This document shows, in pieces, positions 6,654 through 45,935 of a stretch of 64,000 nt of DNA; position 1 is the stretch's first letter, and each line of letters begins with the position of its first letter. Source of the stretch: Gammaproteobacteria bacterium (lineage in GTDB: Bacteria; Pseudomonadota; Gammaproteobacteria; SZUA-152); the NCBI GenBank assembly GCA_021648485.1, contig JAKISS010000001.1:2650-66649 (forward strand), in the 5' to 3' direction. Under the pieces are notes generated by a model. That model was not told where the DNA came from. It worked only from the letters and a program-made list of their open reading frames with translations, and searched no databases. Position numbers and translations under genes: made by a program.

Positions 6654-6657
6654 GGTG

Positions 6658-14292: not shown

Positions 14293-15369
14293 TCAGGGTT
14301 GGTTTTCACCCACTTTTTCATCGGCATAACGCCAAATATCCACATCCCGTCCCTGCTCTCTGAAATGATCCGCGTAATCCGTCAGGTAACGCTGAAAGCT
14401 GGGTTGCTTTTTATAGGCCTCACTGAGCACATAACTCAGTATTCCCTGAGTATGAAAGACTTTGAAAAAGGCTTCGGTACGGATAATCTCTTTACCTTGT
14501 GGATTAAAAACCAGAATGGAGGGCGCATATTCTACGTTGAGTTTTTTGGCCCATTCGCGCGCGGTCATTTTTTCGCCTTCGGGGGTGATAACCGGTGTTT
14601 TTGACCACATGTCCAGCTGGACAACATCAAACTGCCTGATAATGTCGAGCAGCTCGGTATCAGGCAGAATTTTCTGGTGTAGAAAATCACAATTCGGACA
14701 GTCTTTTTGCTCAAAAAATACGGCGAAAGGCCGTTTGTTTTCCTTCACTTTTGCGGAAAAATCAAAAGGTGGTTTGCTGAAAAAAGGTTCAGTATTAAGT
14801 GTTTTGCTCGCTTTGCTGGCCGGGAGATTAGCCTGAATGAAATCCCGGTAGCTGATTTCTTTTTCTTTGCGTTGCGCGACATAGTCCAGATCCAGGCTGA
14901 AGCGTTGTGGTGAGCGGTAACCATTGATACGCAGTGCGACGTTACCCTGCTCATCAAAAAAAATGATCGTCGGTGTAAATTGTACCCTGAGTTTTTCCGC
15001 GAAGGTTTTTTCCGTGTACTGCTGGCCATCAAAGTGAGTGACCGGACGATCTCCCCACATATTAATGGCAATAAGATCGAAGTTTTTCTGCGCTTTTTCT
15101 GTGATTTCTTTTTGCGAGAAGTTACGTTGCACCACTGCATTACAGTAAGGGCAGCCATCCTGATGGAAGAAAATTACCAGTCGTTTCCCCTCGCTGGTTG
15201 CTTCAGTAAGATCTTCCGGAAAATCGAGAAAACTGTCTTTGAACCAGGTGGGGTAGTCAGTTTCTATTCCCCCAAAAAACTCTCCCTTTTTGGGGGAGGC
15301 AAAAGGCTCCAGCGAAAAGAGTATCAGGGTTGAGGCGAGCAACGGGACACTGAAAGCAGGGTATCGCAT
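14293..15369 (-). CDS. periplasmic thioredoxin-fold protein with two CxxC domains
   Basis: Signal peptide from 'MRYPAFSVPLLAST'. Two thioredoxin-like modules with 'DGCPYCN' and 'KDCPNCD'. The track start at 15441 is probably too early. Confidence 0.7.
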   Translation of the reverse strand: MRYPAFSVPLLASTLILFSLEPFASPKKGEFFGGIETDYPTWFKDSFLDFPEDLTEATSEGKRLVIFFHQDGCPYCNAVVQRNFSQKEITEKAQKNFDLIAINMWGDRPVTHFDGQQYTEKTFAEKLRVQFTPTIIFFDEQGNVALRINGYRSPQRFSLDLDYVAQRKEKEISYRDFIQANLPASKASKTLNTEPFFSKPPFDFSAKVKENKRPFAVFFEQKDCPNCDFLHQKILPDTELLDIIRQFDVVQLDMWSKTPVITPEGEKMTAREWAKKLNVEYAPSILVFNPQGKEIIRTEAFFKVFHTQGILSYVLSEAYKKQPSFQRYLTDYADHFREQGRDVDIWRYADEKVGENQP

Positions 15370-15632
15370 GTGATGGCTTCCCGGAAAAATATTTATCGGT
15401 GTGTTTCGGTTGGTGTTTGAGTATAGCAGTGTAATGGTCACACTTCATGCTCATGTTTTCAGGTTAACTGTTATTGTAATTTATTGAGTATTATCGAGAT
15501 TTTTAATTTTCTGCGTTGAAAAATAAGCTGGCTGTGTGTAGCACAAAGGATTAGCTTATTAGCTGAATTGTTTATAAGTTAATCAAATCTTCAATTATGT
15601 GTGTGAATATTATTAAGTCATACTGCGCGTAC

Positions 15633-16079
15633 ATGTTTCGAGCATTGAAGACATTTTTATTATTTTTCCTGGTTTTCCAGGTTGGAATGATGCCCATATC
15701 GCAGGCGTTTGCTGCGCGGCACATGCATGATAGTTCCCATGAAGTTTCCCATAAAAAAATAATGACTGCTGTTTTTCCATCGTCAGCGATGATTGCGGAA
15801 TTTCAACACGTTGTTAAATCCAACAGAAAAGACGGTTTGTCAGATATGGCTCATGTCTCTTCCTCGTCACAGAAAACATATTTGCAAAGCAGCCGGTGTG
15901 GCAAAAGAAATGGGCACAAAGGGGATTGTGACAGTTGCCAATGTACACCGATTGTTGCTGCTCCTGTTTTAATGCAAGAGACTTCGGTATCGACACCAGC
16001 GGAATCGTATAACGTTAAATGGGGTTGTCCATTATACAACGTTTTTATGGCTCCACTTCTCAGACCTCCCGCTTCCTGA
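15633..16079 (+). CDS. small secreted Cys/His-rich protein with C-terminal 'LY..LLRPP' tail (CzcI/DUF2946-like; assignment from memory)
   Basis: Signal peptide 'MFRALKTFLLFFLVFQVGMMPISQAFA', a Cys cluster 'CDSCQC', and the tail 'CPLYNVFMAPLLRPPAS'. That tail is shared with the ORFs at 42500 and 50776. Confidence 0.55.
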   Translation: MFRALKTFLLFFLVFQVGMMPISQAFAARHMHDSSHEVSHKKIMTAVFPSSAMIAEFQHVVKSNRKDGLSDMAHVSSSSQKTYLQSSRCGKRNGHKGDCDSCQCTPIVAAPVLMQETSVSTPAESYNVKWGCPLYNVFMAPLLRPPAS

Positions 16080-16449
16080 ATATCACCGCGTATTTATTTG
16101 TAAGACGATATAAATCGTTCTACAAAAAATTAATGCGCAAAGAGCGCTCCTTAAGTTGTGAATACAGCCTCCGTTATATATCGAGGGTGCGTAAAACTTA
16201 ATCGCTTGAAGTATTTCCGCGATAAAAATTCCTGTCGCAGATTGGTTGGTGTTCTGTTTGTTTATTAAACAGGCCCTATAAAATATTCATTATCAGAGGT
16301 AACGTAATGAAAAGATATAATGCAAAAATGTTTAAAGTTAAGGGGAAGCTTGTAATTAGCACAAGCTTTAACTATATACCGGGGGGCGTGCTGCTCTGCT
16401 CCAAGTTGGAGCATGCCTGCGATCTCAATCAAACCTGGGGGCAACACAA

Positions 16450-18015
16450 ATGAAGAAAGTCAGTATGAAGATGTCTACGTGTTTTTGTCGTGTGGGAGCA
16501 ATGTTTATGCTTCCGATAGTGGCGATAAGTATGTTTTTGGTTGATATCGGTGCCGCAGAAGCGGTACCGGCTTTTGCGCGCAAGTTTCAGGCAAACTGTG
16601 CTTTGTGCCATACCAATGTTCCTCGGCTTGCACCTTTCGGCCAGCAGTTTCTGGCCAATGGTTATCAGTTTCCGGGCACAATGGATGGTGGTGATACTGC
16701 CAAAATCAAACTGGATGGTGCTCAGGGGCCAGTAACGCTGGATACGTTATCTAACATGATGGCTGTGCGTTTACGCGGTGACATCCAGAAAGCCTCGTTC
16801 AAAAATGAACCTGGAGATGGTGTTGATGATCGCTGGGCCATTGAAATGCCTAAAATCGTCAATTTTTTCTTTGGTGGTACCGTTGCGGAAAATATCAGTT
16901 ATTTTATCGAGTCTGAATACAACACTATGGAAAGTGATGAACCTTCTGTGAAATTCGAGCGGGCTGTCATGCAATTTAGCAACCTTGGCGGTGTACAAGG
17001 TGTTGCGAATGTGAAAGTAGGTCGATTTGATCCTTCGTCGCTGTTTTCATTTCCGACTCATCGCCAGCAGTTGAACCCGATTCTGCCGATTGCGGATACG
17101 GGTACGTATCCACCGATGATCCAGCGGATTCCCTTATTACCCTATGCATTTTCGAGCAAATTATTCGGCATGAGCACTGCGGGGGTTGCGGCAGGTACAG
17201 CCGGCACTGCTGTGGGTGATGGCTTTTCTCTGTTGCCATTTGCCCCAACACTGTATAACGCGCCAGTGCAGAATGGTATTTCGATACATGGCCGCCCGGG
17301 TGGTGGTGGAAGCCCATTGCTGTATCAAATAGGGCTCGCATTGAATGATAAAGCGGATGGTACGGCTGAACAGCGCACGGATGTTTATGCCATGTTGCGT
17401 TTTGATTTCCAGGCAGCCGGGGCTGATGCGCAGATTTCCGGTTTCTGGTACAACGCACCGGATGCGGCCCGCTCAACATTGTTGATGCTTGGTAATGTTC
17501 AATATGCAGACAGCGCAACAGACATCACCCGTGTGGGTATTGGTGCGCGGGCGCAATGGGAAACGGTGGATGTCTATTTTGCATATACCCAGGATTCAAT
17601 TGACAATCCGACATGGAATGATTTGCCTAATGCGATGATGATCGCTGCGGCCAACAGTTCAGAATGGCAAGACACCGCAACGGGGTTTTCTCTGGAGGCA
17701 GACTGGCGTTTTGACCCTAACTGGATGCTGGGTGTGCGTTATGACCAGATGGATGCAGGTGGTCTGGAGCGATTGCCAGCAGGGGTGGTAACAGCTGCAA
17801 ATGACAAGATTAATGCCACCGTGCAAATGATCAGTCCCATTCTCAAATACTATCCCAGCCCTAATATTGCGTTGTATACGCGGGCACACATCAATATAAG
17901 TTCTTCCTCTACACTGCCAGATACAAACGGTCAGGTTGCGGGGTTTTCAGGCCAGGAACATCCAGCCTCTAATCTGGAAAATGTGTTGACGTTGGGTGTC
18001 GATATGGCTTTCTAG
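16450..18015 (+). CDS. outer-membrane fused monoheme cytochrome c-porin candidate (Cyc2-like)
   Basis: Signal peptide. A single CxxCH ('PAFARKFQANCALCHTNVPRLAPFGQQF', nt 16597-16611). The ~450 aa that follow are Gly/Ala/aromatic-rich with no further Cys, ending in 'GVDMAF' (an OM-barrel C-terminal Phe). Confidence 0.6.
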   Translation: MKKVSMKMSTCFCRVGAMFMLPIVAISMFLVDIGAAEAVPAFARKFQANCALCHTNVPRLAPFGQQFLANGYQFPGTMDGGDTAKIKLDGAQGPVTLDTLSNMMAVRLRGDIQKASFKNEPGDGVDDRWAIEMPKIVNFFFGGTVAENISYFIESEYNTMESDEPSVKFERAVMQFSNLGGVQGVANVKVGRFDPSSLFSFPTHRQQLNPILPIADTGTYPPMIQRIPLLPYAFSSKLFGMSTAGVAAGTAGTAVGDGFSLLPFAPTLYNAPVQNGISIHGRPGGGGSPLLYQIGLALNDKADGTAEQRTDVYAMLRFDFQAAGADAQISGFWYNAPDAARSTLLMLGNVQYADSATDITRVGIGARAQWETVDVYFAYTQDSIDNPTWNDLPNAMMIAAANSSEWQDTATGFSLEADWRFDPNWMLGVRYDQMDAGGLERLPAGVVTAANDKINATVQMISPILKYYPSPNIALYTRAHINISSSSTLPDTNGQVAGFSGQEHPASNLENVLTLGVDMAF

Positions 18016-18154
18016 AGGTTATTTTGGCGGGTGCAGAGATGTACCCGCTTTTTCTCTTTCTGGTTCCCTCGGTCCTCCGTGGGAATCCATATCCGGCTTT
18101 GTAGTAGTAACAACATCATACACTTTTCGGCATATCACTTGCCTTTACCACCCG

Positions 18155-19546
18155 TTAATTCAAGTTATGCAATATGACCCGAAACCGGGTACATTTTTCT
18201 GTGGATTCAACTTTGATACTGCCACCATGAATGTCAATAATGGATTTGACGATGGACAACCCCAGTCCGGCACCTTCGTCACTGCGATGCCGTGAGGCAT
18301 CAACACGATGAAAACGGTTGAACAGTAGCGGGATGTGTTCAGCCGGAATAACCGGGCCGGGGTTTTCCACGCTGATGGATATGGTCTGCCCGGGCAATTG
18401 TTCAAGTCGCACATGCACGGTATTGCCCGACGGAGAATGACGAATGGCGTTGGATAAGAGGTTGTTCAATACACGCCGCAACATGAGCCGGTCTGCGAGC
18501 ATGGTGGCGGTGCCATGCAGGACTAACGCAACACCTTGTTCTTCCGCCCATGCTTCGTAGTACTCAAAAAGATCCTGTACTTCTTTGGCGAGATCAACAT
18601 CCGTGCGGTTCAGTTGGTACTGCCCGTTATCCGCTTTGGCAAGGAACAACATGTCACCGATCATTTGTGCCATGCGTTCATATTCTTCGATATTGGAATA
18701 AAGGATTTCACGGTATTCATCATTGCTGCGCGATTGAGACAGGGCTACCTGGGTCTGTGTCAGCAGACTGGTCACCGGTGTGCGGAGTTCGTGAGCAATG
18801 TCGGCAGAAAAATTGGATAAACGCTGAAAGGCTTCTTCCATGCGTGCGAGCATGTCGTTGAATGAGTTTGCCAGATCGGTAAGTTCCCGGGGTACGGTTT
18901 CCGGAGATAAACGCGTGTTCAGTTCGTTGGCACTGATGCGGTGGATTTGTGTGACGATGGTGTGCAAGGGGGCATGGCCCCGACGTACGGCTATCCAGCC
19001 CATCAGGCCCATGAGTACGGTGCCGCTGGCAACCATTAACCACAATGTGAGACGAAAATGGTCAAGAAAGCGCAAGTGGCTGTTGATAGCCACAGCCACA
19101 GACATTGTATAATACCGCGGAGTTGTCGTGTTGTTTTCCGCAAGGTGTCGGGTTAATACGCGGTAAGTGTGTTTGGCATCACTCCAATGGCGTATTTTAT
19201 CATTATTGTCGAAAGTGGTTTGATTGAGCGAGGAAAGATCAGGCCCGCCAGGACTGGAAAACAGGGTATAGCCATCCGGAGTGGTGATGTGCAGTACGGT
19301 GCCATGGTGCCCCACCAGCACGTCATTAAATCTTTGCGCCAGCGCCACAGGGCTGTTTGTTGCATCGTGGCCGGCCAGTGTTTGTGATACGGCGTGAGCA
19401 ACACTCGCAAGCTCAGCATCATCTTCAATCTCAAAATGACGTTCAATGGAACGCTCGATGATCCAGCCGAAACCGGTTAAAACTATGGCCGCAGCAATGG
19501 CAAACAGCAGGGTCAGGCGTAACGTTAGCGAAGGTGGTCGGCGCAT
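18155..19546 (-). CDS. copS: heavy-metal (copper) sensor histidine kinase
   Basis: Two TM helices flank a periplasmic domain. HAMP, H-box 'FSADIAHELRTPV', and N/G boxes 'NLLSNAIRH' and 'GAGLGLSIVKSI'. Adjacent to copR and divergent from copAB. Confidence 0.85.
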   Translation of the reverse strand: MRRPPSLTLRLTLLFAIAAAIVLTGFGWIIERSIERHFEIEDDAELASVAHAVSQTLAGHDATNSPVALAQRFNDVLVGHHGTVLHITTPDGYTLFSSPGGPDLSSLNQTTFDNNDKIRHWSDAKHTYRVLTRHLAENNTTTPRYYTMSVAVAINSHLRFLDHFRLTLWLMVASGTVLMGLMGWIAVRRGHAPLHTIVTQIHRISANELNTRLSPETVPRELTDLANSFNDMLARMEEAFQRLSNFSADIAHELRTPVTSLLTQTQVALSQSRSNDEYREILYSNIEEYERMAQMIGDMLFLAKADNGQYQLNRTDVDLAKEVQDLFEYYEAWAEEQGVALVLHGTATMLADRLMLRRVLNNLLSNAIRHSPSGNTVHVRLEQLPGQTISISVENPGPVIPAEHIPLLFNRFHRVDASRHRSDEGAGLGLSIVKSIIDIHGGSIKVESTEKCTRFRVILHNLN

Positions 19547-19552
19547 CGTTTT

Positions 19553-20236
19553 TCAATTTTCATCTGACACGTCAAGCATGTAACCCATGCCGCGTACAGT
19601 GTGAATCAACCGAGTGTCAAAGTCGTCGTCAATTTTAGCCCGCACCCGGCGAATTGCGACATCAATGACATTGGTATCACTGTCGAAATTCATATCCCAT
19701 ACTTGAGAGGCAATCAAAGAACGGGGCAGCACTTCTCCCTGGCGACGCATCAATAGTTCCAGTAAAGCAAATTCTTTAGCAGTGAGTGTGATGCGTTGGC
19801 CGTTACGGATAACCCGGCGACGCATAAGATCCAGTTCCAGGTCAGCAACTTTGAGTGTGGTTTCCGTTGCGATTGTTGCACCGCGTCGCAGCAGTGTGCG
19901 CACCCGCGCCAGTAATTCTGCGAAGGCAAAAGGTTTAACCAGATAATCATCCGCACCCAGCTCCAGACCTTTGACGCGATCTTCCACGCTATCCCGTGCG
20001 GTGAGAAATAACACAGGCACTGTTCTACCTGCTTCACGCAGTGATTGCAGGATACGCCAGCCGTCTACGTCCGGCAGCATGACATCGAGAATAATCAGAT
20101 CGTAAGGCTCGGTCATCGCAAAGTGATGGCCGTCCAGGCCGTTACGGGCGAGGTCTGTCACAAAGCCCGCTTCACTGAGCCCTTGTTTGAGATAGTCCCC
20201 GATTTTAGTTTCGTCTTCGACAATGAGTATTTTCAT
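19553..20236 (-). CDS. copR: heavy-metal response regulator (OmpR family, CusR/CopR type)
   Basis: 'MKILIVEDE...[14 protein letters not shown]' receiver domain plus a winged-helix C-terminus '[11 protein letters not shown]'. Confidence 0.9.
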
Positions 20237-20341: not shown

Positions 20342-20365
20342 GATCATTACAACATTGTAATGATC
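20342..20365. promoter_or_regulatory. candidate CopR/CusR 'copper box' in the copR-copA divergent region
   Basis: Perfect 11-2-11 inverted repeat GATCATTACAA-CA-TTGTAATGATC. It lies 91 bp upstream of the MCO copA start and 106 bp upstream of the copR start. As I recall, the E. coli CusR box is TGACAA-N2-TTGTCA, which this resembles. Confidence 0.5.
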
Positions 20366-20455: not shown

Positions 20456-22216
20456 ATGAGAAGAACTCCCTCAAATACGCGTGTCATTCCCGACCTCTCT
20501 CGTCGCCGGTTTTTACAGGGGCTTGCTGCCGGTGGTGTACTGGCGGGTTTGTCACCCTGGGTCAAACCTGCCTGGGCAGGTGAAGTTGCCACCACGGCCA
20601 CGGGTATGGCTCCGGTGCTCAGTGGTACAGAATTTGATCTCGTTGTTGCGGAGACTGCGGTTAACTATACGGGCAGCCCGCGTATGGCAACCACAATCAA
20701 CGGTTCCATTCCGTCCCCCATTTTGCGGTGGCGTGAAGGTGATACGGTGACTATTCGTGTCACTAATCGTCTGAACACATCAACCTCTATTCATTGGCAT
20801 GGCATCATTCTGCCGTATCAAATGGATGGTGTTCCCGGGATCAGCTTTGCCGGTATCGCGCCTGGTGAAACCTTCACTTACCGTTTTAAGGTAGATCAGG
20901 CAGGCACTTATTGGTATCACTCCCACAGTGGCTTTCAGGAACAGACCGGCATGTACGGCACAATTATTGTTGAACCAAGAGGCGGTGAACACATTCGTGC
21001 GGATCGTGATTATGTTGTGCAGTTATCGGATTGGACTGACGAAGATCCCATGAAGGTGTATGCGAAGTTAAAAAAACAAAGTGACTACTATAATTTTAAT
21101 GCACCGACGGCCATGGATTTTTTCCGCGATGCTTCCGAACGTGGTCTGGGTAAAGCCATGGAGAGACGGCGCATGTGGAATCAGATGCGCATGAGTCCCA
21201 CGGACCTGGCGGATATTTCTGCCCACACTTATACCTACCTTATGAATGGCACGACACCGGCGGGTAACTGGACCGGGCTGTTTAATCCGGGTGAGCGGGT
21301 GCGGTTGCGTTTTATCAGCAGCGGCACGCAGAGTTTCTTCGATGTGCGTATTCCCGGTCTGAAAATGACCGTAGTGCATGTGGATGGCCAGGATATCGAA
21401 CCGGTCACTGTGGATGAATTACGCTGCGGGCCGGGCGAAACATATGACGTGCTGGTGACGCCTCAGGACGATGCCTACACTATTTTTGCGCAATCCATGG
21501 ATCGTACCGGCTATGCACGTGGCACGCTCGCGACCCGTGCGGATCTCACTGCCCCTATTCCGAAGCTGGATGAACCCGAATGGCTGACCATGACGGACAT
21601 GATGGGTGCAATGGCCCAGGGTGGTGTTATGGGTGGTATGGGCGGCATGAATCACAGTGGTCACAGTATGTCAGGCAGCATGAATAAAAATGCTACACCG
21701 GTACGTCACGCCAAAACGGAATACGGACCGAGTGTGGATATGCGTGTGGATATGCCGCGTACCAACCTGGATGATCCGGGTATCGGTCTGCGTAACAATG
21801 GCCGACGAGTGCTGACGTATGCGGATATAAAAACACCTGGTGAGCCTGTTGACCCGCGTGAGCCTGGCCGGGACATTGAATTACATCTAACGGGAAATAT
21901 GGAACGTTACACCTGGTCACTGGACGGTCTGGAATTTGGCAAGTCTACGCCAATACACTTCCGCCATGGCGAACGCCTGCGAGTGATTCTGCACAACGAC
22001 ACGATGATGACCCATCCTATGCATTTACACGGTATGTGGAGTGACATGGAAGATGCAGACGGGGAGTTTCTGGCGCGCCGACACACTATCAGCGTGCAAC
22101 CGGCGCAGCGCGTCAGTTTTCGGGTCACTGCGGATGCTCTCGGGCGTTGGGCCTGGCACTGCCACCTGCTTTATCACATGGATGCGGGCATGTTCCGCGA
22201 AGTGATAGTGACGTGA
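20456..22216 (+). CDS. copA: copper-resistance multicopper oxidase (CopA/PcoA type), Tat-exported
   Basis: Twin-arginine signal 'SRRRFLQGLAAGG'. Copper-ligand motifs 'HWHG', 'YHSH', 'HPMHLHG' and 'WAWHCHLLYHMDAGM'. Met-rich loop 'MTDMMGAMAQGGVMGGMGGMNHSGHSMSGSM'. Confidence 0.9.
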   Translation: MRRTPSNTRVIPDLSRRRFLQGLAAGGVLAGLSPWVKPAWAGEVATTATGMAPVLSGTEFDLVVAETAVNYTGSPRMATTINGSIPSPILRWREGDTVTIRVTNRLNTSTSIHWHGIILPYQMDGVPGISFAGIAPGETFTYRFKVDQAGTYWYHSHSGFQEQTGMYGTIIVEPRGGEHIRADRDYVVQLSDWTDEDPMKVYAKLKKQSDYYNFNAPTAMDFFRDASERGLGKAMERRRMWNQMRMSPTDLADISAHTYTYLMNGTTPAGNWTGLFNPGERVRLRFISSGTQSFFDVRIPGLKMTVVHVDGQDIEPVTVDELRCGPGETYDVLVTPQDDAYTIFAQSMDRTGYARGTLATRADLTAPIPKLDEPEWLTMTDMMGAMAQGGVMGGMGGMNHSGHSMSGSMNKNATPVRHAKTEYGPSVDMRVDMPRTNLDDPGIGLRNNGRRVLTYADIKTPGEPVDPREPGRDIELHLTGNMERYTWSLDGLEFGKSTPIHFRHGERLRVILHNDTMMTHPMHLHGMWSDMEDADGEFLARRHTISVQPAQRVSFRVTADALGRWAWHCHLLYHMDAGMFREVIVT

Positions 22217-22245
22217 ATATGGTGATGAAGGAAAAGGTGACTGCA

Positions 22246-23184
22246 ATGAACAAACGATTGACATTAGGCTGCGTATTTTTGTTAAGCAGTAGTGCTTTCC
22301 CCGTCTGGGCAGACAATGACGCCGCGCAGGATAGGCCGACGATGCCCATGAAAAATATGGATCATAATGCTATGCCGGGTATGAATCATGGCGATAAACA
22401 AAGTGCTAATGAAAAACCGGGTGCCATGCAGGGCAGGGCGCAGGGTGGATCGGCACCGGCCAATGCCCGTGATCCACATGCTTATTCAGGCGGCTATTCC
22501 ATTGAGTCCGGTAAATATGCGTTACCCGGGCCACGGATATTAAAACTGGCGGATGAATATAATTTTGCATCATTGCTGGTTGATCGACTGGAAATGGTGC
22601 GCACTTCAGATAACAGCTCGATAACCTATGATCTGCAAGGCTGGTATGGGCGTGATTATGATCGTCTGGTGATCAAGGCCGAAGGTAATGTGGATAACGG
22701 GAAAATAGAGGAAGCCAGTACCGAGTTGTTATGGAGCCATGCCTTGACAACTTATTGGGATGGACAATTAGGCCTTCGTTACGACAGTGGTGAAGACCCT
22801 GGTCGTACCTGGGTGGCTTTTGGCGTGCAGGGTTTGGCACCTTATTGGTTTGAGCTGGACATTACAGGTTATGTCGGCGAAGAAGGTCGCACAGCGTTGG
22901 GCCTGGAAGCAGAATACGAAATACTGTTCACGCAAAAACTGATTCTGACACCACGCATTGAAGCCAGTGTTTATGGTAAAGACGATGTTAAACGTGGCAC
23001 GGGTTCCGGGTTATCTGAATTTTCTGCGGGGCTTCGTTTACGTTATGAAATTCGGCGGGAATTTGCACCTTATGCAGGTATTGAATGGGCCAGCACATAT
23101 GGTGGCACGGCCGATTATGCGCGTGCAGCGGGACTCGATACGCGTGAAACACGCGCCGTAGCAGGTCTTCGATTCTGGTTTTGA
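22246..23184 (+). CDS. copB: copper-resistance outer-membrane protein CopB/PcoB
   Basis: Signal peptide 'MNKRLTLGCVFLLSSSAFPVWA', a Met/His-rich N-terminal segment 'MPMKNMDHNAMPGMNHG', and a barrel ending 'AGLRFWF'. The start is chosen downstream of the copA stop. The track start at 22147 overlaps copA. Confidence 0.85.
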   Translation: MNKRLTLGCVFLLSSSAFPVWADNDAAQDRPTMPMKNMDHNAMPGMNHGDKQSANEKPGAMQGRAQGGSAPANARDPHAYSGGYSIESGKYALPGPRILKLADEYNFASLLVDRLEMVRTSDNSSITYDLQGWYGRDYDRLVIKAEGNVDNGKIEEASTELLWSHALTTYWDGQLGLRYDSGEDPGRTWVAFGVQGLAPYWFELDITGYVGEEGRTALGLEAEYEILFTQKLILTPRIEASVYGKDDVKRGTGSGLSEFSAGLRLRYEIRREFAPYAGIEWASTYGGTADYARAAGLDTRETRAVAGLRFWF

Positions 23185-23262
23185 AGGGTGATGGGTGCAA
23201 TGTGCTGATGCCACATTTAAACACCTGAATTTCAAATGCACAGGTATATGAGGACGTTAACG

Positions 23263-24327
23263 ATGAAAAATATACTGATACGTTTATCAATCTTCACGTT
23301 ATTGTTTCCCTTTGTCACAATTGCACAGCCGTTGTTGTATGTCCCCACAGGTAACACGAATGATGTTGTGATTATTGATCTCAGTACAGACAAAATTATT
23401 GGGCGAATTGATGAGCTGGAAAATGCTCATGGCCTGTCGAGCAGTCGTTACACTGAATATCTGGTTGCAGGCAGTATGCAGGCACCGGGTACAAAAAAAT
23501 CCGCTGCAGCCAAACCCGCGAAAATGAGTGAAGCTGAACATGCGGAACATCATGCGAATACCAAAAGCAAGGCTGAGAAAACGGCTACACCAAGTTATGT
23601 TTCCATTATTCATGCCAAGCATGGGCACGTCATGCGTCGTGTCGAAGTAGGTGCGCTGACACATCATACGGCCGTATCACCGGATGGGAAAATCGCGATT
23701 GCCGTACATTCCGGGGCGGGCGATATTTCTGTTATCGATCTCGATAAAATGAATGTTATCAAAATATTGCAAACCGGAACATGGCCTAATTATGCAGTGT
23801 TTAGCAGCGACGGAAATTTTCTTTATATCACAAATGCCGGCATGGATATGGTCAGTGAAATTAATACCCGGACATGGCAGGTCACACGGGAAATAAACGT
23901 TGGTAAAGCACCGGAGCACATGGTGATCAGTACTGATAATAAATTTCTTTATGTTGCCAATAAGACTGGCGGGTCTGTTTCTGTTGTCAATTTAACGGAT
24001 GGAAATGTGACAAAAACTTGGCCAGTGGGTGAAAAAATACACGGCATAGATTTGTCGGACGATGGCCGTTGGTTGTTTGTGGCCAGTAAAGGTACTGACA
24101 CGTTAAGCCGGATTAATCTTTCCAACGGAAAAGTTTCTACAATTGATTTGTTACCTTCACCGTACCATGTTGCATATATTACCGGACTGAACAAACTTTA
24201 TGTTTCCAGTCGGAAAATACCCAAAATCTGGGTGCTTAACCCGCAAACTCTGCACGTCGAGAATGAAATTGACTTGGGTAAGGGGGTAGCACATCAGATG
24301 GTTATTCGTTCAAACAACAACAAATAG
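23263..24327 (+). CDS. secreted YVTN-type beta-propeller repeat protein
   Basis: Signal peptide 'MKNILIRLSIFTLLFPFVTIAQP'. Repeated ~40-aa units ('LYV.N...V.VI.L', 'FLYITNAG', 'FLYVANK', 'LFVASKG', 'LYVSS'). One loop is His-rich ('EAEHAEHHANTK'). Confidence 0.7.
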   Translation: MKNILIRLSIFTLLFPFVTIAQPLLYVPTGNTNDVVIIDLSTDKIIGRIDELENAHGLSSSRYTEYLVAGSMQAPGTKKSAAAKPAKMSEAEHAEHHANTKSKAEKTATPSYVSIIHAKHGHVMRRVEVGALTHHTAVSPDGKIAIAVHSGAGDISVIDLDKMNVIKILQTGTWPNYAVFSSDGNFLYITNAGMDMVSEINTRTWQVTREINVGKAPEHMVISTDNKFLYVANKTGGSVSVVNLTDGNVTKTWPVGEKIHGIDLSDDGRWLFVASKGTDTLSRINLSNGKVSTIDLLPSPYHVAYITGLNKLYVSSRKIPKIWVLNPQTLHVENEIDLGKGVAHQMVIRSNNNK

Positions 24328-24349: not shown

Positions 24350-24772
24350 ATGTTTACAGTGAGTGAATTGGCAAAGCGAACCGATGTCACACCGGATACG
24401 GTGCGTCATTATGTACATATTGGCATGCTGAAGCCTGAGCGTAATCCTCATAACGGTTATAAATTATTTAGTGGTGAGGACGTTACCAAGCTGCGCTTCA
24501 TTCGTCAGGCGCAGAGTCTAGGGTTCACTCTGGCAGAAATTGGTGAAATTCTTAATCATTCCATGGCAGGAGGGTCTCCCTGTCCCCAGGTGCGTGAGCT
24601 GATGCAACGCCGGGTTGTTGAAAATAAAATCAAACTGGATGCGTTGAATGCCTTACAAAAACGCATGGAAGAAGCCTTGTTACTTTGGGAAAACATACCC
24701 AATGGACAGCCTGATGGCGACTCGGTTTGTCATTTGATTGAATCGGTCACTTTATTGAATCCAAAAGCTTGA
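24350..24772 (+). CDS. MerR-family metal-responsive transcriptional regulator
   Basis: N-terminal wHTH 'FTVSELAKRTDVTPDTVRHYVHIGML', a dimerisation helix, and candidate metal ligands 'GGSPCP' and 'DSVCHLIE'. Confidence 0.85.
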   Translation: MFTVSELAKRTDVTPDTVRHYVHIGMLKPERNPHNGYKLFSGEDVTKLRFIRQAQSLGFTLAEIGEILNHSMAGGSPCPQVRELMQRRVVENKIKLDALNALQKRMEEALLLWENIPNGQPDGDSVCHLIESVTLLNPKA

Positions 24773-24800
24773 CCTATTAGCTGCGCATAGGTTTTACACT
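24769..24800 (+). promoter_or_regulatory. MerR-type promoter/operator (TTGACC-20 bp-TACACT with dyad ACCTAT-N9-ATAGGT)
   Basis: The -35 box overlaps the merR-like stop codon. The 20-bp spacer is over-long, as in MerR-family activated promoters, and the dyad is centred in it. It lies 56 bp upstream of the Met-rich gene. Confidence 0.6.
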
Positions 24801-24855: not shown

Positions 24856-25281
24856 TTGATCATGAAATTCACAATGAAACCGGTTTTAGGCACATCTGTT
24901 TTGCTGATTGCATTGTTGGCAACCCCTCTGTTGTATGCAGGAGAACAGCATGCCAAAGGCATGAACGGCATGTCCGGGCAGCACAGTAAGCAAATGATGA
25001 ACATGGATAAGATGCAAGGCCAAATGAGTGAGATGTCGAAAATGATGGAAGAGGCCCATGCGACAAAAGACATGGATAAACGTCACGAGATGATGCGTAA
25101 ACACATGAAAAAAATGCAAGACGTGATGGGTAATATGAAGGGCATGATGAGCGACAATATGTCGGGTACCATGAATATGGAACAACATCAGAAAATGATG
25201 TCAACACGTATGGACATGATGCAGGGCATGATGGAGCAGATGCTCAAACAGCAATCCATGATGATGGATACAAAGAAATAA
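24856..25281 (+). CDS. secreted methionine-rich protein (candidate periplasmic Cu(I)/Ag(I) binder)
   Basis: SD 'AAAGGAG', a signal peptide, then ~112 aa containing 33 Met (counted) plus several His. No Cys in the mature part. Confidence 0.7.
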   Translation: MIMKFTMKPVLGTSVLLIALLATPLLYAGEQHAKGMNGMSGQHSKQMMNMDKMQGQMSEMSKMMEEAHATKDMDKRHEMMRKHMKKMQDVMGNMKGMMSDNMSGTMNMEQHQKMMSTRMDMMQGMMEQMLKQQSMMMDTKK

Positions 25282-25344
25282 TTGCTTTGTTATGGTGATG
25301 TTTACCCGTTTATAACAATAAAAGCAGGCAGCAGGAGTGAGACA

Positions 25345-27918
25345 ATGACCAAGGATCCAGTATGTGGAATGGATGTCGCCGAAACATCCGGGCATCACTC
25401 AGAATATGAAGGAGATACCTACTATTTTTGCAGTGAGAGTTGTCAACACAAGTTTGAGGATACTCCTGCTTCATATGTGAAAAACAGCCAGCTTAAGGAT
25501 CCGGTGTGTGGCATGGATGTTACCACTGACTCTGATTTCCATACAAAGCATGAAGGTGAAAATTATTATTTCTGTAGCGAAAACTGCCAGCACACGTTTG
25601 GAAAAAATCCACAACAGTATTTACACAATCAGGAAAGCAATGCTTGCAGTCATGAACACAAGAGCGATACCCGCCAGCAGCCTGTCGATGAATCTGCGAT
25701 TTATACGTGCCCTATGCATCCTGAGGTTGAGCAGCAAGGGCCGGGGGCCTGTCCCAAATGCGGTATGGCACTGGAGCCCAAGAATGTACCTTTGACCGCT
25801 ACCAAAACGAAATATACCTGCCCTATGCATCCGGAGATTGTTCAGGATCAGCCTGGCAGTTGTCCCAAGTGTGGTATGGCACTGGAAGCCGTTACTGTAG
25901 AAGCAGAAGAAGATACCAGTGAACTGGAGTACATGAGCAAACGTTTCTGGGTCAGTGCTGTATTGGCCCTTCCTGTGTTATTCAGTGCCATGGCGGCTGA
26001 ATTCTGGCCTGAAGGCATGGCAGAATTGATTGACCCCAGTTTGCGGCAATGGTTGGAAATGATTGTGTCAGCACCGGTCATTATCTGGGGTGGCTGGATA
26101 TTTTATGTGCGCGCTATCCAGTCTGTGATCACACGTAACCTGAACATGTTTACCCTTATCGGACTCGGTGTCTCGGTTGCCTTTACGTATAGTGTCATTG
26201 CCACTGTGGCTCCCGGTATCTTTCCGGCGGCGGTCTTTAACGACGTTGGTGTTGTGCCGGTTTATTTTGAAGCCGCAGCCGTTATCACTGCCTTGATACT
26301 GCTGGGGCAGGTGCTGGAATTGCGGGCACGCAGTCAAACCAATGCGGCCATCAAATTGCTGTTAGGCCTGGCACCCAAAACTGCACGCATCGTACGTGAG
26401 GATGGTACTGAAGAAGATATTCCCATGGAACACGTACAAGTCGGCGATGTTCTGCGGGTACGCCCGGGTGAAAAGGTACCGGTGGACGGTACCGTGATTG
26501 AAGGTGAGAGCAACGTTGATGAGTCCATGGTCACTGGTGAACCGCTGCCGGTAGGAAAAAACAAAGGCGAACGTCTCATTGGTGCTACGGTTAATGGTAC
26601 CGGTGGTCTGTTAATGCGGGCTGAAAAGGTAGGCGCTGATACATTGTTATCACAAATTGTACAGATGGTAGCCGATGCCCAGCGTTCACGGGCACCCATT
26701 CAAAGACTGGTTGATCTTGTTGCAGGCTACTTTGTGCCTGTAGTGGTGGTGATCGCTATTATTACCTTCATCGTCTGGAGTTTGTGGGGGCCGGAGCCAG
26801 CAATCGCTTATGCCGTAATTAATGCAGTGGCGGTGTTGATTATCGCCTGTCCCTGCGCGTTGGGTTTGGCAACCCCCATGTCCATTATGGTAGGTACCGG
26901 CAAAGGCGCGATGATGGGTGTACTGTTTAAAAATGCCGAAGCACTGGAGGTCTTGCGCAAGGTGGATACTCTGGTGGTGGACAAAACCGGCACGCTCACC
27001 GAAGGCAAGCCAAAACTGGTGGCGGTAACATCTGTTGGTGATTTTTCTGAAGACGATGCCTTGCGCCTGATTGCCAGCCTGGAACGTGCCAGTGAACATC
27101 CCTTGGCCGAGGCCATTGTACAGGGGGCAGAAGAACGCAAACTGGTCTTGGTAAAAGCCGATAACTTCCAGTCAATCACCGGCAAAGGGGTAACAGGTGA
27201 TGTGGATGGACACAGTGTGGCCATGGGTAACATCAAATTGCTGGAAGACCTTGGTATTGATGCGGGCGACTTGCCTCAACAGGCCGATACACAACGGGCT
27301 GAAGGTCAGACAGTCATGTTCTTTGCCATCGATGGTAAAGCCGCCGGGTTGATTGGTGTTGCCGACCCCATCAAGGAAACCACGCCCGAAGCGATTCGCG
27401 ACTTGCATGCCGCCGGTATCAAAGTCGTTATGCTCACTGGCGACAGTCGTAAAACGGCTGAAGCAGTGGCTGCGAAACTGGATATTGACCAGGTACAGGC
27501 CGAGGTATTGCCGGATCAGAAAGCTGCCGTTGTCAAGCAGCTTCAGGATGAAGGACGTATTGTCGCCATGGCAGGTGATGGCATTAATGATGCCCCTGCC
27601 CTGGCACAGGCCCATGTCGGTATCGCCATGGGAACGGGTACTGATGTTGCCATGGAAAGTGCTGGGGTGACGCTGGTGAAAGGTGATTTACGCGGCATTG
27701 TGCGAGCACGGCGCTTGTCTCAGGCCACCATGCGCAATATTCGCCAAAACCTGTTCTTTGCCTTCATCTATAATTCGTTAGGCGTACCGGTTGCGGCGGG
27801 GCTGCTCTATCCCTTCTTTGGTATTTTATTATCACCGATCATTGCCGCAGCGGCCATGAGTTTCAGTTCGGTGTCGGTGATCATGAATGCCCTGCGACTG
27901 AAGAACTTGCGCCTATAA
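25345..27918 (+). CDS. copper-translocating P1B-type ATPase (CopA-type) with 2x YHS + 2x 'CPMHP..CPKCG' N-terminal modules
   Basis: Motifs 'CPC' ([12 protein letters not shown]), 'DKTGTLT', 'GDGINDAP' and 'TGES-like TGEP'. The N-terminus has two 'DPVCGMDV...YYFCSE.CQH.F' and two 'YTCPMHPE...CPKCGMALE' modules. SD 'AGGAG' precedes the ATG at 25345. Confidence 0.95.
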
Positions 27919-27999: not shown

Positions 28000-28671
28000 A
28001 TGCATAGTGTTGGGTATGCATATGGTATGTGGGTGGTGGTCGCGTTTAACGTTGGCCTGTTCCTCTTTTTTACTCTGAGCTTTCTGAAACCACGGGGCAG
28101 CCAGGAGTGGCGCAGTATGAGCGTGGTGACGGCCTTTTTTGTCGCCCTGTTTGCCGAAATGTACGGCTTTCCGTTAACGATTTATTTACTGACCGGCTGG
28201 CTAGGTGATGCCTATCCTGCACTGGAGCCCTTCAGCCATAAACTGGGACATCTGTGGGTCGTGGTGCTTGGCGGATCAACGCTGGCCTGGGCAGTGGTGA
28301 TGGCTCTGAGTCTGGTATTGATGCTCATGGGCTACACGCTGCTGTCAAAAGGCTGGACACAAATCCATGCTGCTCGTGGCGGTCTGGTGACCGATGGTAT
28401 TTATACCTATGCCCGCCATCCACAATACACCGGACTCTTTCTGGTGATCATCGGCTTTTTGGTGCAGTGGCCCACGATACTTACCGTAATAATGGCACCC
28501 GTTCTATTGTTTGCTTATGTCCATCTGGCCAGAGTGGAAGAGCGGCGAGCCGAGGTGGAGTTCGGTGTAGAGTACGACGAATACGTCCGTAAAACACCGG
28601 CCTTTTTTCCACCTCTGAATCAGTGGAAAGCATTTTTAACAGTGAACGTTCCGGATGAAGAAACATCGTAA
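28000..28671 (+). CDS. isoprenylcysteine carboxyl methyltransferase (ICMT/PEMT)-family membrane methyltransferase
   Basis: Polytopic membrane protein with the family hallmark 'GIYTYARHPQYTGLFLVIIG' and a downstream 'EE..L...FG..Y..Y' region. Confidence 0.75.
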   Translation: MHSVGYAYGMWVVVAFNVGLFLFFTLSFLKPRGSQEWRSMSVVTAFFVALFAEMYGFPLTIYLLTGWLGDAYPALEPFSHKLGHLWVVVLGGSTLAWAVVMALSLVLMLMGYTLLSKGWTQIHAARGGLVTDGIYTYARHPQYTGLFLVIIGFLVQWPTILTVIMAPVLLFAYVHLARVEERRAEVEFGVEYDEYVRKTPAFFPPLNQWKAFLTVNVPDEETS

Positions 28672-33460: not shown

Positions 33461-33580
33461 TAATGCGCAACGATGGTTTTTGTGCGGTGAACGCGAGCAA
33501 CTTATGCTGAATACAGGTGGATGGCCAAGATTAACATCAGGTTTGCCACCCGCCTGCAACAAACAGGAAAACCGGCTTAT

Positions 33581-33979
33581 ATGTTGAAAACACATTATTT
33601 CATTTTAGCGGCTGTGCTGAGTTTGTTTTTGGCAGGCTGTGACAGCCTGGACCCGGAAGAAATACGCAAGCGTCAACATTTCCCCGGGAAGGATTTTGTC
33701 GCTGATGCTCAACAGGGGGAGACGCTGTTTGTGGCGAATTGTTCACAGTGTCACGGCCCGGCAGGGCAGGGGACACGGCAGGGACCACCACTGGTGGACA
33801 AAATATACCGCCCTGCACATCACGCCGATATTACCTTTCACTGGGCCGTAAAAAACGGTGTCAAACACCACCACTGGGGATTCGGCGACATGCCGCCCAT
33901 CAAGAATGTTTCTCCCGAGGATGTCGGTCATATTATCGCCTATATCCGCCAACAACAGCGTAATGCGGGTATTCAGTAA
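33581..33979 (+). CDS. lipoprotein c-type cytochrome (class I), paralog of 41883-42284
   Basis: Lipobox 'LFLAGC' and the heme motif 'CSQCHGPAGQG'. It shares 'GPPL...Y.P.HHAD.TF..AV..GV..HHW.FGDMPP' with the other copy. Confidence 0.8.
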   Translation: MLKTHYFILAAVLSLFLAGCDSLDPEEIRKRQHFPGKDFVADAQQGETLFVANCSQCHGPAGQGTRQGPPLVDKIYRPAHHADITFHWAVKNGVKHHHWGFGDMPPIKNVSPEDVGHIIAYIRQQQRNAGIQ

Positions 33980-41393: not shown

Positions 41394-41876
41394 TTATTGT
41401 CGTTGGCGTTGCAAAGCTTCATTGTTGATGTCCGCCTGAATTTTTCGTGTTTCTTCAGGCCAGCGACTTTTTATGTAGGCAATAACCGCCCAGATATCGT
41501 CGTCACTGAGGGTGTCTCTCCAGGCTGGCATGTCACTTTTGTAATCATCTGGGGCATAGGGCGGTATCATTCCCAGTTTGGTGATACCGAACAGAAGCTC
41601 GTCAGCATGATGCCAGGTATGCCCGGTTTCATCATGGGGCGGAGCAGGTAATTTGCCGTCGGGTTTCCGTATTCGCCAGTTTTTCTGCCCTTCAAGATTG
41701 GCTCCGTGACACAATGAGCAAAAGCGTTTGTAGACAAGTTCACCGCGTTTTAGCTGTTCATTCTCGGTGTTTTCTGCCTGTGCAACCATTGGCACAACCA
41801 TTGTCATACATAATAAAGTCACGTACGCAGGGCAGCGCATGATTTTAAAAAACATATTTGAGTTTTCCTTGCGCAA
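41394..41876 (-). CDS. c-type cytochrome (class I, monoheme)
   Basis: Signal peptide and the heme motif 'CSLCHGANLEGQ'. Downstream 'HTWHHADELLFGITK...MPAW' provides the distal Met region. Confidence 0.8.
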   Translation of the reverse strand: MRKENSNMFFKIMRCPAYVTLLCMTMVVPMVAQAENTENEQLKRGELVYKRFCSLCHGANLEGQKNWRIRKPDGKLPAPPHDETGHTWHHADELLFGITKLGMIPPYAPDDYKSDMPAWRDTLSDDDIWAVIAYIKSRWPEETRKIQADINNEALQRQRQ

Positions 41877-41882
41877 TGGAAA

Positions 41883-42284
41883 TTAATAAATACCGTTTTC
41901 ACGCTGTAACCAGCGAATAAAGGGTAAAAGAACATCAACATCTTTTCGTGTTGCACCTGGCACCGGTGGCATGTCGCCAAAGCGCCAGTGATGAGCTTGT
42001 ACACCTTTGAGCACTGCCCGGTAAAATGTCGGATCAGCATGGTGTGACGGCTTGTAAAATCCGTGCATCAACGGCGGACCCTGAGGGGTGCCATTTCCCC
42101 ATTTTCCGTGACAGCTGGAACACAGGTCTCTAAATTTTTCCATGCCGACAACATATTTTTCGGGTACTTTCGGTGGGTTGTCAATGGAATATTTAGTGGC
42201 AGCGATCACGCCCGACAGGGGAGCCAACGATAAAATTGCCAATGTAAGCAAGCTACAAAATAAAAATCGGAATTTCATCATCAT
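41883..42284 (-). CDS. c-type cytochrome (class I), paralog of 33581-33979
   Basis: Signal peptide, 'CSSCHGKWGNG', and the shared 'GPPLMHGFYKPSHHADPTFYRAVLKGVQAHHWRFGDMPP'. Confidence 0.8.
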   Translation of the reverse strand: MMMKFRFLFCSLLTLAILSLAPLSGVIAATKYSIDNPPKVPEKYVVGMEKFRDLCSSCHGKWGNGTPQGPPLMHGFYKPSHHADPTFYRAVLKGVQAHHWRFGDMPPVPGATRKDVDVLLPFIRWLQRENGIY

Positions 42285-42298
42285 TACCTTTTTGTAAT
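42283..42298. promoter_or_regulatory. possible second copper box (ATTAC-N6-GTAAT)
   Basis: ATTACCTTTTTGTAAT has the same half-sites and spacing as the core of 20342-20365 (ATTACAACATTGTAAT). It lies in the divergent region between the cytochrome genes and the Cus-like operon, but it overlaps the first of three consecutive ATGs of the cytochrome gene. Confidence 0.3.
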
Positions 42299-42499
42299 AT
42301 TAAAGAAACGGGGTTGTTTGCGTGTATTATATCGTCAAATTGATTGTGTATGTGATGCATTTGATGAGTCGGATGCAAGTTACACACAGGAAGGAACCTA
42401 CGCTTTGTGATCAGGTCAGACTGCACAATGTCCAGCGGCATTATGTATAGGCAATTGTTGACAAAATCACATACTGGCACCTACACTTTATCCCTAATC

Positions 42500-42868: not shown

Positions 42869-43061
42869 TTTTTAACCTGCGGGGTTTGCCCGCATGGCTG
42901 CGCTTGCGCGCGCGTGTTATGAATATTTCAGGAGAATCTGATGATTCTGTTCCATTTGGCAGCTTCCGGTCAGAAAATGACTGGCATTACATTATTTTCA
43001 GGATTGCTCACAGCATTTCATTATGCTGTGGGTTTTATCTGCTTCAAGGAAGGAGGGTGGT

Positions 43062-44384: not shown

Positions 44385-44429
44385 TATTTTTAATGCTAAT
44401 TGATTAGCACGAAATTTTGAGGTGAATTC

Positions 44430-45929: not shown

Positions 45930-45935
45930 GGGCAC

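Follow-up and report, generated by a model that had tools for sequence, protein, structure and literature searches.

The 64-kb window analysed here, that is, the whole stretch of 64,000 nucleotides from contig JAKISS010000001.1 of a gammaproteobacterium, carries a cyc2-like gene whose product is, by sequence, a well-supported member of the Cyc2 family of fused monoheme cytochrome-porins, with covalent heme predicted. The gene belongs to a clade that has lost the diheme cytochrome c, cytochrome c, cbb3 and alternative complex III (ACIII) partner set of its relatives and now sits in reshuffled copper-homeostasis islands. The gene and the parts of its product, in window coordinates, are as follows.

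16450..18015, + strand: cyc2-like gene, fused monoheme cytochrome c-porin (putatively Cluster 3, Tenderia subclade), from the open reading frame (ORF), homologs and model
16450..16563, + strand: predicted signal peptide, aa 1-38, with cleavage predicted between AEA and VP, from the sequence and the A-x-A rule
16561..16629, + strand: Cyc2 signature A38-V-P-A-F-A-R-K-F46, QAN, C50ALCH54, TNV, P58-R-L60, after the motif of Keffer et al. 2021
16702..18012, + strand: predicted β-barrel porin domain, aa ~85-521, ~16 long strands, C-terminal Phe, from DSSP and Foldseek

The ORF at 16450..18015 (+) encodes 521 aa and bears out what an earlier note on this DNA had described: a signal peptide, a single CxxCH at C50-H54, a Cys-free remainder and a ...GVDMAF terminus. 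The signal peptide has a basic N-terminus and a hydrophobic core ahead of AEA/VP, and residues 5-32 are a predicted helix in the model. Cysteines occur at positions 11 and 13, within the signal peptide, and at 50 and 53, and nowhere else. The sole CxxCH, CALCH (residues 50-54, nt 16597-16611), lies inside PAFARKFQANCALCHTNVPRLAPFGQQF, and the 468 residues after C53 are free of Cys. The mature protein contains 55 Ala, 45 Gly and 50 aromatic residues in 483, and its terminal Phe is invariant in an alignment of 74 homologs. This sequence points to an outer-membrane location.

Keffer et al. 2021 define Cyc2 by a signal peptide, one CxxCH, an upstream AxPxFAR[Q/K][T/Y] motif described as unique to Cyc2, and PxL 4 residues downstream, together with a minimum length of 365 aa and a fused porin of 16 strands similar to OprO/OprP. 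The window protein has the signal peptide, the CxxCH, AxPxFAR, PxL and a predicted barrel, and at 521 aa it exceeds the length threshold. Residues A38, P40, R44, K45, C50, C53, H54, P58, R59 and L60 are invariant among the 74 aligned homologs, and 75/75 full-length genome-derived relatives carry exactly one CxxCH, then PxL. Position 46 of the motif is Phe in the window protein and several of its closest relatives and Tyr in most others, while the spacing from motif to Cys, 3 residues in the window protein, is the same in 45/45 motif-matching distant representatives. Motifs, length and barrel model, along with 57% identity to Tel_03480 of Ca. Tenderia electrophaga (E = 1e-168, 95% of the length aligned), agree with the Cyc2 architecture that the note had proposed.

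A search of 5.8 billion proteins recovered 187 homologs of the window protein, and the family profile reaches ~3,390 clusters (50% identity, E <= 1e-3), mostly 400-450-aa monoheme proteins with variants of the same motif. Eddie et al. 2017 call Tel_03480 'the cyc2 homolog', McAllister et al. 2020 show it by name in their Cyc2 tree, Keffer et al. 2021 list it with Cyc2 proteins in Fig. S7, and PMC9769843 puts it in Cluster III with Leptospirillum; from this published placement we infer membership of Cluster 3 for the window protein. Pfam matched the protein only through OMP_b-brl (residues 345-520, E 1.3e-3, below the cut-off), NCBIfam models gave no match, and a PDB sequence search for a reference Cyc2 found none. 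An identical NCBI protein from a metagenome-assembled genome (P0001) carries the name 'TonB-dependent receptor'. We reject this name as a mis-annotation: PF07715 and PF00593 are unmatched in the window protein, and both are matched by a genuine TonB-dependent receptor at 6565-8703.

The AlphaFold model reached a pLDDT of 83.3 and a pTM of 0.82, with strands mostly above pLDDT 90. Its cytochrome region fell below 50, a low confidence that arises because heme was not modelled. The top Foldseek matches were all outer-membrane porins at E ~1e-11 (OmpF, OmpC, Omp-Pst1, chitoporin), and OprP (2o4v) was among the matches with a TMq of 0.49. The predicted fold is an outer-membrane barrel resembling 16-strand porins, with about 16, or possibly 18, strands; a barrel of this kind was what the note had expected of a predicted structure.

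The genes around the cyc2-like gene are given below.

14293..15441, - strand: secreted double thioredoxin-like protein, the upstream neighbour, syntenic in close relatives only (domain matches, locus comparison)
15597..16079, + strand: small secreted 160-aa protein (start 15597 or 15633), no matching family in Pfam or NCBIfam
18155..19546, - strand: copS/cusS heavy-metal sensor kinase, convergent with the cyc2-like gene (PF21085 CusS 7e-39; TIGR01386 2.4e-153)
19553..20236, - strand: copR/cusR response regulator (NF007346 1.8e-113; TIGR01387)
20456..22216, + strand: copA multicopper oxidase, exported by the twin-arginine translocation (TAT) route (TIGR01480 6e-286)
22147..23184, + strand: copB outer-membrane copper-resistance protein (PF05275 3e-88)
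23236..24327, + strand: secreted 7-bladed YVTN β-propeller with 11 invariant His (domain matches, 44-sequence alignment, model)
24350..24772, + strand: merR-family (CueR-like) regulator (PF13411, PF09278)
24862..25281, + strand: Met-rich small secreted protein, 139 aa, about one-quarter Met (sequence; no real family match)
25282..27918, + strand: Cu-type P1B ATPase with YHS and HMBD domains (domain matches)
28000..28671, + strand: PEMT/ICMT-like membrane methyltransferase, whose homolog Tel_03475 lies directly upstream of Tenderia cyc2
33521..33979, + strand: small c-type cytochrome, 152 aa, candidate periplasmic electron acceptor (PF13442, PF00034)
41394..41876, - strand: second small c-type cytochrome, 160 aa (domain match)

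Pfam and NCBIfam thus identify the convergent copS/copR and the copAB genes that the earlier note had named as neighbours. Its 'CzcI-like' label for the small secreted protein at 15597..16079 is unsupported, with no Pfam or NCBIfam match at E <= 0.01; this protein is syntenic in close relatives only, at 31-84% identity. The metal island, at whose edge the cyc2-like gene lies, also has a YHS protein and two resistance-nodulation-division (RND) efflux sets, and it includes the two small c-type cytochromes (33521-33979 and 41394-41876), which the note had left out. The second of these is weakly similar to a 312-aa cytochrome of respiratory-type operons. The left flank of the island is housekeeping, GC is flat across the window, and no compositional sign of recent horizontal transfer of the island was seen. 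Genes for cox, cbb3 or ACIII (ActB/C, CcoN/O) or a Cyc1-like partner are absent from the 64-kb window.

To place this neighbourhood in its family we refer to the window locus as WIN and to the loci of other family copies by L-numbers. A neighbour-joining tree of 75 full-length proteins with 100 bootstraps splits three ways, into a Nitrospira clade (100/100), a basal grade of Woeseia-like and other copies, and the window clade (100/100). Marker genes counted within 10 kb of each copy follow this split. Cytochrome partners accompany 42/43 Nitrospira copies and copper markers 0/43; in the basal grade the counts are 8/8 and 2/8, the two copper cases being a distant P-type ATPase or β-propeller (L022, L027); in the window clade they are 0/25 and 16/25.

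A metagenome scan enlarged the sample to 154 unique copies, of which we counted the loci with at least 8 kb of flank, taking >=51% identity to the window protein as the range of its clade. At >=51% identity, 20/27 loci have at least two copper markers and 0/27 at least two respiratory markers; at 41-50% the corresponding counts are 3/20 and 18/20, and at <=40% they are 0/57 and 56/57. The clade range thus differs from the sister groups both in copper markers (20/27 vs 3/77, Fisher 1e-12) and in respiratory markers (0/27 vs 74/77, Fisher 6e-22), with independence overstated in both tests, the loci being related. The lack of respiratory partners stated earlier therefore stands for the 64-kb window, and it extends to the 27 clade-range loci as regards the diheme cytochrome c, cytochrome c, cbb3 and ACIII set. 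The clade itself is gammaproteobacterial and comes from hydrothermal sulfide and sediment habitats.

Pfam-annotated contexts were examined for nine further clade members, and in 7/9 the gene lies within copper islands of differing gene order. The islands draw on a set made up of cusRS, copAB, the His-rich β-propeller, a CueR-like merR, a YHS/HMBD P-type ATPase, PEMT/ICMT, YHS proteins and small cytochromes c, the last recurring in WIN, L010, L078, L080, L082 and L086. In Tenderia the order is cusS cusR / copA copB x x β-propeller merR DUF547 x DUF2933 ICMT cyc2; in L081 it is copA copB YHS DUF2231 cyc2 β-propeller merR merR x ATPase; and in L082 it begins copB cyc2 merR. The L081 gene sits in the middle of a co-directional string, copA-copB-YHS-DUF2231-cyc2-β-propeller-merR, with gaps of 61 and 158 nt, and ATPase/YHS/DUF5676/PEMT genes lie upstream of the gene in L083 and L086. 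By contrast with these islands, L087 (46% identical, on a 297-kb contig) has ACIII divergently upstream of the gene and, downstream, a diheme cytochrome c, a CarboxypepD_reg-like protein, more cytochromes c and ccoNO, the neighbourhood expected for an iron-oxidation pathway.

We considered whether copSR-copAB might be an insertion and the copper link accidental. In L005 and L010 (80% identical) and L018 (54%) the β-propeller gene directly follows the cyc2-like gene, with copSRAB absent between them, and the same immediate succession is found in L005, L010, L078 and L081. As a general explanation the insertion is rejected, given that 7/9 further members lie in differently ordered copper islands; cyc2-β-propeller-merR-ATPase looks like an older core, and an insertion may fit the local history.

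Several observations on the islands and their relatives stand beside this comparison. L107 and L109, closely related 49% identical copies, have a β-propeller, merR, P-type ATPase, YHS and DUF547 nearby and no respiratory partners; because they fall below 51% and are copper-flanked, the context switch may predate the clade as delimited, or may have occurred twice. PEMT/ICMT-like genes are found in the islands of L076 (8889-9542), L081 (17336-18010), L082 (7106-7780), L083 (6956-7618) and the window (28000-28671), usually accompanied by DUF2933, DUF2934, DUF5676 and YHS proteins. Thoeris ThsA/ThsB adjoin the cyc2-bearing island of L080 (1727-3760), TraI and AbiE that of L081 (1-3330), and in L083 (1-474) an ISL3 transposase beside the island truncates a β-propeller gene; such defence and mobility neighbours are consistent with horizontal movement of the islands. 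Among the sister copies, many Nitrospira genomes have two Cyc2-like genes, convergent ~7 kb apart or, in L058, in tandem (Nitrospira/Nitrospirales loci L043, L053, L058, L063, L066, L068 and L071), and the conserved partner set (diheme cytochrome c, CarboxypepD_reg-like protein, cytochromes c) lies within 10 kb. The 21 kb examined of Ca. Nitrospira defluvii (L060) contain a single such locus.

The β-propeller of the window (23236-24327) has some of its His in an SE(A/E)EH-x-x-HH loop at residues 98-106, and in its model 6/7 blades carry a conserved His at or before the first strand (H65, H143/144, H228, H269, H311, H353). The protein is a possible metal-binding hub, recalling the His-lined CuZ site of N2O reductase. 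Its family is large (993 matches), and Tenderia has two copies. Because of this family size, and because the second Tenderia copy lies elsewhere, we rejected the β-propeller as a dedicated partner of cyc2.

For the Tenderia homolog, expression data are available in a supplementary table of Eddie et al. 2017, as log2 fold change at 470 vs 310 mV over 8 samples. In that table copA (+1.62), copB (+1.83), the β-propeller (+1.57) and merR (+1.56) lead the string, followed by ICMT (+1.16), DUF547 (+1.14), DUF2933 (+1.02) and Tel_03465 (+0.92); cyc2 itself stands at +0.69, the next two genes after it at +0.53 and +0.51, cusS at +0.41 and cusR at -0.08 (Eddie et al. 2017). The upstream RND region (03375-03435) ranges from -0.92 to +0.54, with no gene significantly up (Eddie et al. 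2017). Sample by sample (n = 8), the correlation of cyc2 with the genes from copA to ICMT is r = 0.64-0.92, vs -0.29 to +0.39 with 19 unrelated genes from the same table page, and the gene that tracks it most closely is ICMT (r = 0.92). The carbon-fixation genes nearby show no such co-variation with Tenderia cyc2. The induction that has been cited for electron uptake is therefore common to the adjacent copper genes and is stronger there; the main text of Eddie et al. 2017 is silent on copper.

The region upstream of the cyc2-like gene and the regulatory sites of the island comprise the following elements.

16346..16368, either strand: palindrome 1, AAGCTTGT-N7-ACAAGCTT, overlapping the -35-like hexamer (inverted-repeat search)
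16350..16378, + strand: promoter-like TTGTAA-17 nt-TATATA, inferred, an 8/12 match to the sigma-70 consensus and below the 9/12 scan threshold
16397..16413, + strand: palindrome 2, TGCTCCAA-G-TTGGAGCA, probable RNA hairpin of the 5' untranslated region (5'-UTR) (inverted repeat, alignment)
18026..18049, + strand: terminator-like hairpin and T-run, 11 nt past the stop codon (sequence scan)
20346..20361, either strand: cop box ATTACAACATTGTAAT between copR and copA, a perfect match and the window's sole site without a mismatch
24769..24797, + strand: MerR-type promoter, TTGACC, a 19-nt spacer with the dyad ACCTAT-N9-ATAGGT (24772-24792), TACACT

The earlier note had reported two palindromes upstream of the gene and suggested that they were operators. 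Both exist, the first lying 3 nt to the left of where it had been placed; comparison gave no support for a role as operators. The 370-nt intergenic region thus contains two perfect inverted repeats with arms of 8 nt, modestly above chance (dinucleotide shuffles expect 0.097; P(>=2) = 0.0185). The core of palindrome 1, CTTGT-N7-ACAAG, is kept in the four closest relatives only, the same four in which alone the upstream block 16290-16420 is conserved, and there is no second copy in the 64-kb window. We therefore rejected it as a shared operator, there being no second window copy and its conservation merely tracking that of the whole block. It overlaps the promoter-like site, whose TTGTAA-17-TATATA frame is retained in WIN and L002-L004 and appears as TTGTAT-17-TATATA in L010. 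Palindrome 2, which reads (T)GCTCCAA-G-TTGGAGC(A), is probably a 5'-UTR RNA hairpin rather than an operator, because the variants in L002, L003 and L004 stay paired only through G.U on the + strand. It shows three one-sided changes and zero double compensatory ones, a weak record given four sequences. With a promoter-like site, a 5'-UTR hairpin and a terminator, the cyc2-like gene of the window appears, as far as such signals tell, to be its own monocistronic transcription unit.

Two further sites concern the rest of the island. The 3' end of merR (24350-24772) falls inside the textbook MerR-type promoter that precedes the Met-rich protein and the ATPase. A cop-box-like ATTACCTTTTTGTAAT with one mismatch (42283-42298) lies upstream of the ORF 42407-42868 and the CusCBA-like genes 43023-49106, which suggests that CopR also controls these efflux genes.

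Among known systems, Tel_03480 is the closest to the window protein, with the same motif, a single heme, a similar length and a place in the same monophyletic clade, and its gene likewise lies beside cusRS-copAB-β-propeller-merR-...-ICMT. It differs in being the last gene of a co-directional copper string, whereas the window gene precedes the convergent copSR; it also has published expression data, and has been read in the literature as an electrode or iron oxidase with its copper neighbours unmentioned. The sister Nitrospira and Woeseia-like Cyc2 proteins are 32-50% identical and share motif, single heme and barrel. Their mature length is ~425 aa in the Nitrospira type vs ~485 aa in the window clade, and their genes are followed by a diheme cytochrome c, a CarboxypepD_reg-like protein and cytochromes c, often with ccoNO/ACIII and rarely with copper genes. 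The window protein is also ~80-90 residues longer than typical 400-450-aa Cyc2 homologs.

Cyc2PV-1 of Mariprofundus ferrooxydans (Cluster 1), for which Fe(II) oxidase activity and a potential of 208 mV have been shown, resembles the window protein in its signal peptide, N-terminal CxxCH, both motifs and ~16-strand OprP-like porin, at an identity of ~20% as judged from the 21.5% of Tenderia. Unlike genes of the neutrophilic Cyc2 iron-oxidation pathway, the window gene is without a Cyc1, cbb3 or ACIII context. The Cyc2 of Acidithiobacillus ferrooxidans (Cluster 2) is likewise an outer-membrane monoheme cytochrome-porin, but it belongs to an acidophile, has a potential of 560 mV at pH 4.8, is ~19% identical to the Tenderia clade and is encoded in the respiratory rus operon with cyc1, cox and rus, unconnected with copper homeostasis. 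Its electrons go to the cupredoxin rusticyanin, and this pair is a precedent for transfer from a heme to a copper site.

Two further comparisons concern outer-membrane barrels. CopA/CopB (PcoA/PcoB), in the same island, also pair a metal oxidase with a barrel, and PcoAB has been proposed as a 'porin-MCO' (multicopper oxidase) Fe(II) oxidase by He et al. 2017; they differ in being two proteins with copper centres rather than heme, and the CopB barrel represents a smaller distinct family, PF05275, that the window protein does not match. MtoAB, PioAB and MtrCAB also move electrons through an outer-membrane barrel, using a separate porin and a decaheme cytochrome, whereas the window protein combines one heme and barrel in one polypeptide.

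Neighbourhood and co-expression back the idea, already put forward in the earlier note, of an outer-membrane redox step recruited into metal homeostasis; it is plausible, with a putative substrate. In its fuller form, the protein would be an outer-membrane metal oxidase tied to copper stress, with Cu(I) suggested by context and Fe(II) possible, a proposal that we consider evenly balanced between right and wrong. At the cell surface, the heme at or in the barrel would be supplied with one electron at a time by a metal ion in its reduced state, for which Cu(I) is the most economical guess given the context. The electrons would then pass to an island-encoded periplasmic acceptor, either a small cytochrome c or CopA through its cupredoxin T1 site, the latter a candidate because of the analogy with Cyc2-to-rusticyanin transfer in A. 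ferrooxidans. Toxic Cu(I) would thereby be oxidised before or while crossing the outer membrane.

A bolder version, which we hold only tentatively and think rather doubtful, makes the clade an outer-membrane cuprous oxidase that passes electrons from Cu(I) to island cytochromes c, the CopA multicopper oxidase or the His-lined β-propeller, with abundant chloride complexes around weathering copper-iron sulfides as the Cu(I) source. If true, this would be an oxygen-sparing, respiration-linked copper detoxification, possibly with energy gain.

A number of observations weigh against a metal oxidase tied to copper stress. Regulation is the first. With the cop box searched as ATTACA-N4-TGTAAT, no site with <=2 mismatches occurs in 16080-16450, and 19 other clade loci have none in the 500 nt preceding the gene, bar one 2-mismatch site in L004. 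The island MerR operator ACCTAT-N9-ATAGGT occurs in the window only at 24772-24792 and within 500 nt upstream of the gene in none of 20 clade loci, which also lack a generic CueR dyad there. The dyad that does precede the cyc2-like gene has its centre at the -35 edge of a promoter-like site with a 17-nt spacer, unlike the 19-20-nt spacing of MerR promoters. Direct wiring through cop box, MerR or CueR was therefore dropped, there being no sites upstream in the 20 loci. The note had placed the gene in a copper regulon: its location among copper genes stands, and strict regulon membership is unproven because neither a cop box nor a MerR operator lies upstream. Tenderia cyc2, moreover, is preceded by a 459-nt gap and has a basal level above its neighbours, and the co-variation comes from one experiment of 8 samples in which copper was not varied.

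Context and sequence supply the remaining counterweights. For about one quarter of the well-flanked clade members there is no copper island around the gene: near the cyc2-like gene of L084 and L085, copper and respiratory genes are both lacking, and L013, L014 and L085 adjoin Rnf/Nth/DUF1841 and an M48 peptidase. Phylogenetic non-independence of the loci makes the Fisher tests too favourable, and shared island inheritance could explain the linkage without common function. A Met/His-rich Cu(I)-binding motif was sought in the window protein and is absent, and the clade-specific conserved residues include no Cys, Met or His. The clade-specific changes include three positions in and beside the heme motif (C-AL-CH-T-N vs C-(T/N)(V/A)-CH-T-(R/A) elsewhere), which could tune the heme potential. 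Finally, every biochemically characterised Cyc2 oxidises Fe(II) (Keffer et al. 2021). The Tenderia Cyc2 is, however, merely 17.5-21.5% identical to the characterised proteins in the table of Keffer et al. 2021, and because of this distance function is not transferable in either direction. On Cu(I) as substrate, the sequence speaks neither for nor against.

The alternative that survives best is a canonical Cyc2 that oxidises dissolved Fe(II), a mineral or an electrode for energy and hands the electrons to cytochromes and oxidases encoded elsewhere in the genome, while copper genes co-travel with it on 'sulfide-mineral lifestyle' islands; we regard this as possible, if on the unlikely side. Fe(II) oxidation is what all three characterised Cyc2 proteins carry out, the Tenderia homolog occurs in abundance on biocathodes and is the published candidate for extracellular electron transfer, and Tenderia-like Cyc2 homologs are expressed on inactive sulfide chimneys. 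Co-travel would suit the mobility and defence genes of some islands (TraI/AbiE in L081, the ISL3 transposase in L083, Thoeris in L080), and the lack of a copper-type operator upstream, the lack of a copper-binding motif in the protein and the part of the clade outside copper islands all fit as well. Mere co-travel sits less easily with a gene that stays with copper genes through many rearrangements, as in the L081 string, with a window island that shows no compositional anomaly and has housekeeping flanks, and with a Tenderia cyc2 that follows the copper string rather than the carbon-fixation genes near it. A respiratory role, for its part, would leave unaccounted why it is specifically this clade that is without the cytochrome and oxidase partners kept by 74/77 sister copies.

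That the barrel is mainly a channel, moving copper or another solute in efflux or exclusion with the heme domain as plug, gate or redox sensor, strikes us as improbable. Outer-membrane copper transport has been proposed for CopB/PcoB, the closest folds are diffusion porins and the anion-selective OprP, Keffer 2021 puts the cytochrome as a plug at the barrel opening, and the gene adjoins CopB in L082 and efflux genes in several islands. Yet conservation across the family is highest at and around the heme motif, a better fit to a catalytic redox role, characterised relatives transfer electrons, and the islands already encode CopB and CusC-type outer-membrane components. Reverse flow, in which the protein would send electrons outward to reduce Cu(II), Fe(III) or another acceptor, for example to immobilise metal, is highly improbable: one-heme electron transfer is reversible in principle, the earlier note had listed metal reduction among its options and small periplasmic cytochromes are present as possible donors, but Cu(I) is the more toxic species, the other island genes (CopA oxidase, P-type ATPase, Cus-type RND) all serve to oxidise it or clear it, as is established for cop/cue/cus systems, and no characterised Cyc2 acts as a reductase.

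The family and a 57%-identical homolog have already been published, and the new result is the copper context. Such 'Cyc2 homologues' already appear in chimney studies, interpreted there in terms of iron oxidation or extracellular electron transfer, and in the open-access full-text literature we found no paper linking Cyc2 to copper-resistance islands. The function of Cluster 3 is 'most uncertain' according to Keffer et al., and this cluster dominates hydrothermal-chimney datasets. A Cluster-3 clade in which copper neighbours replace respiratory partners offers a concrete, testable alternative function. Potential-dependent induction of cyc2 is key evidence for cathode electron uptake by Tenderia, and the adjacent copper-resistance genes respond more. 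The gene cyc2 is the main marker (for example in FeGenie) for calling iron oxidisers in metagenomes, and genes of this clade should be taken as evidence of iron oxidation only with caution. If the clade is indeed an outer-membrane cuprous oxidase, 'cyc2' counts in vent and sediment metagenomes and the Tenderia electron-uptake route would need re-reading; and if Cu(I) is the substrate, the clade would represent a new kind of outer-membrane copper defence, possibly even a copper-based energy source.

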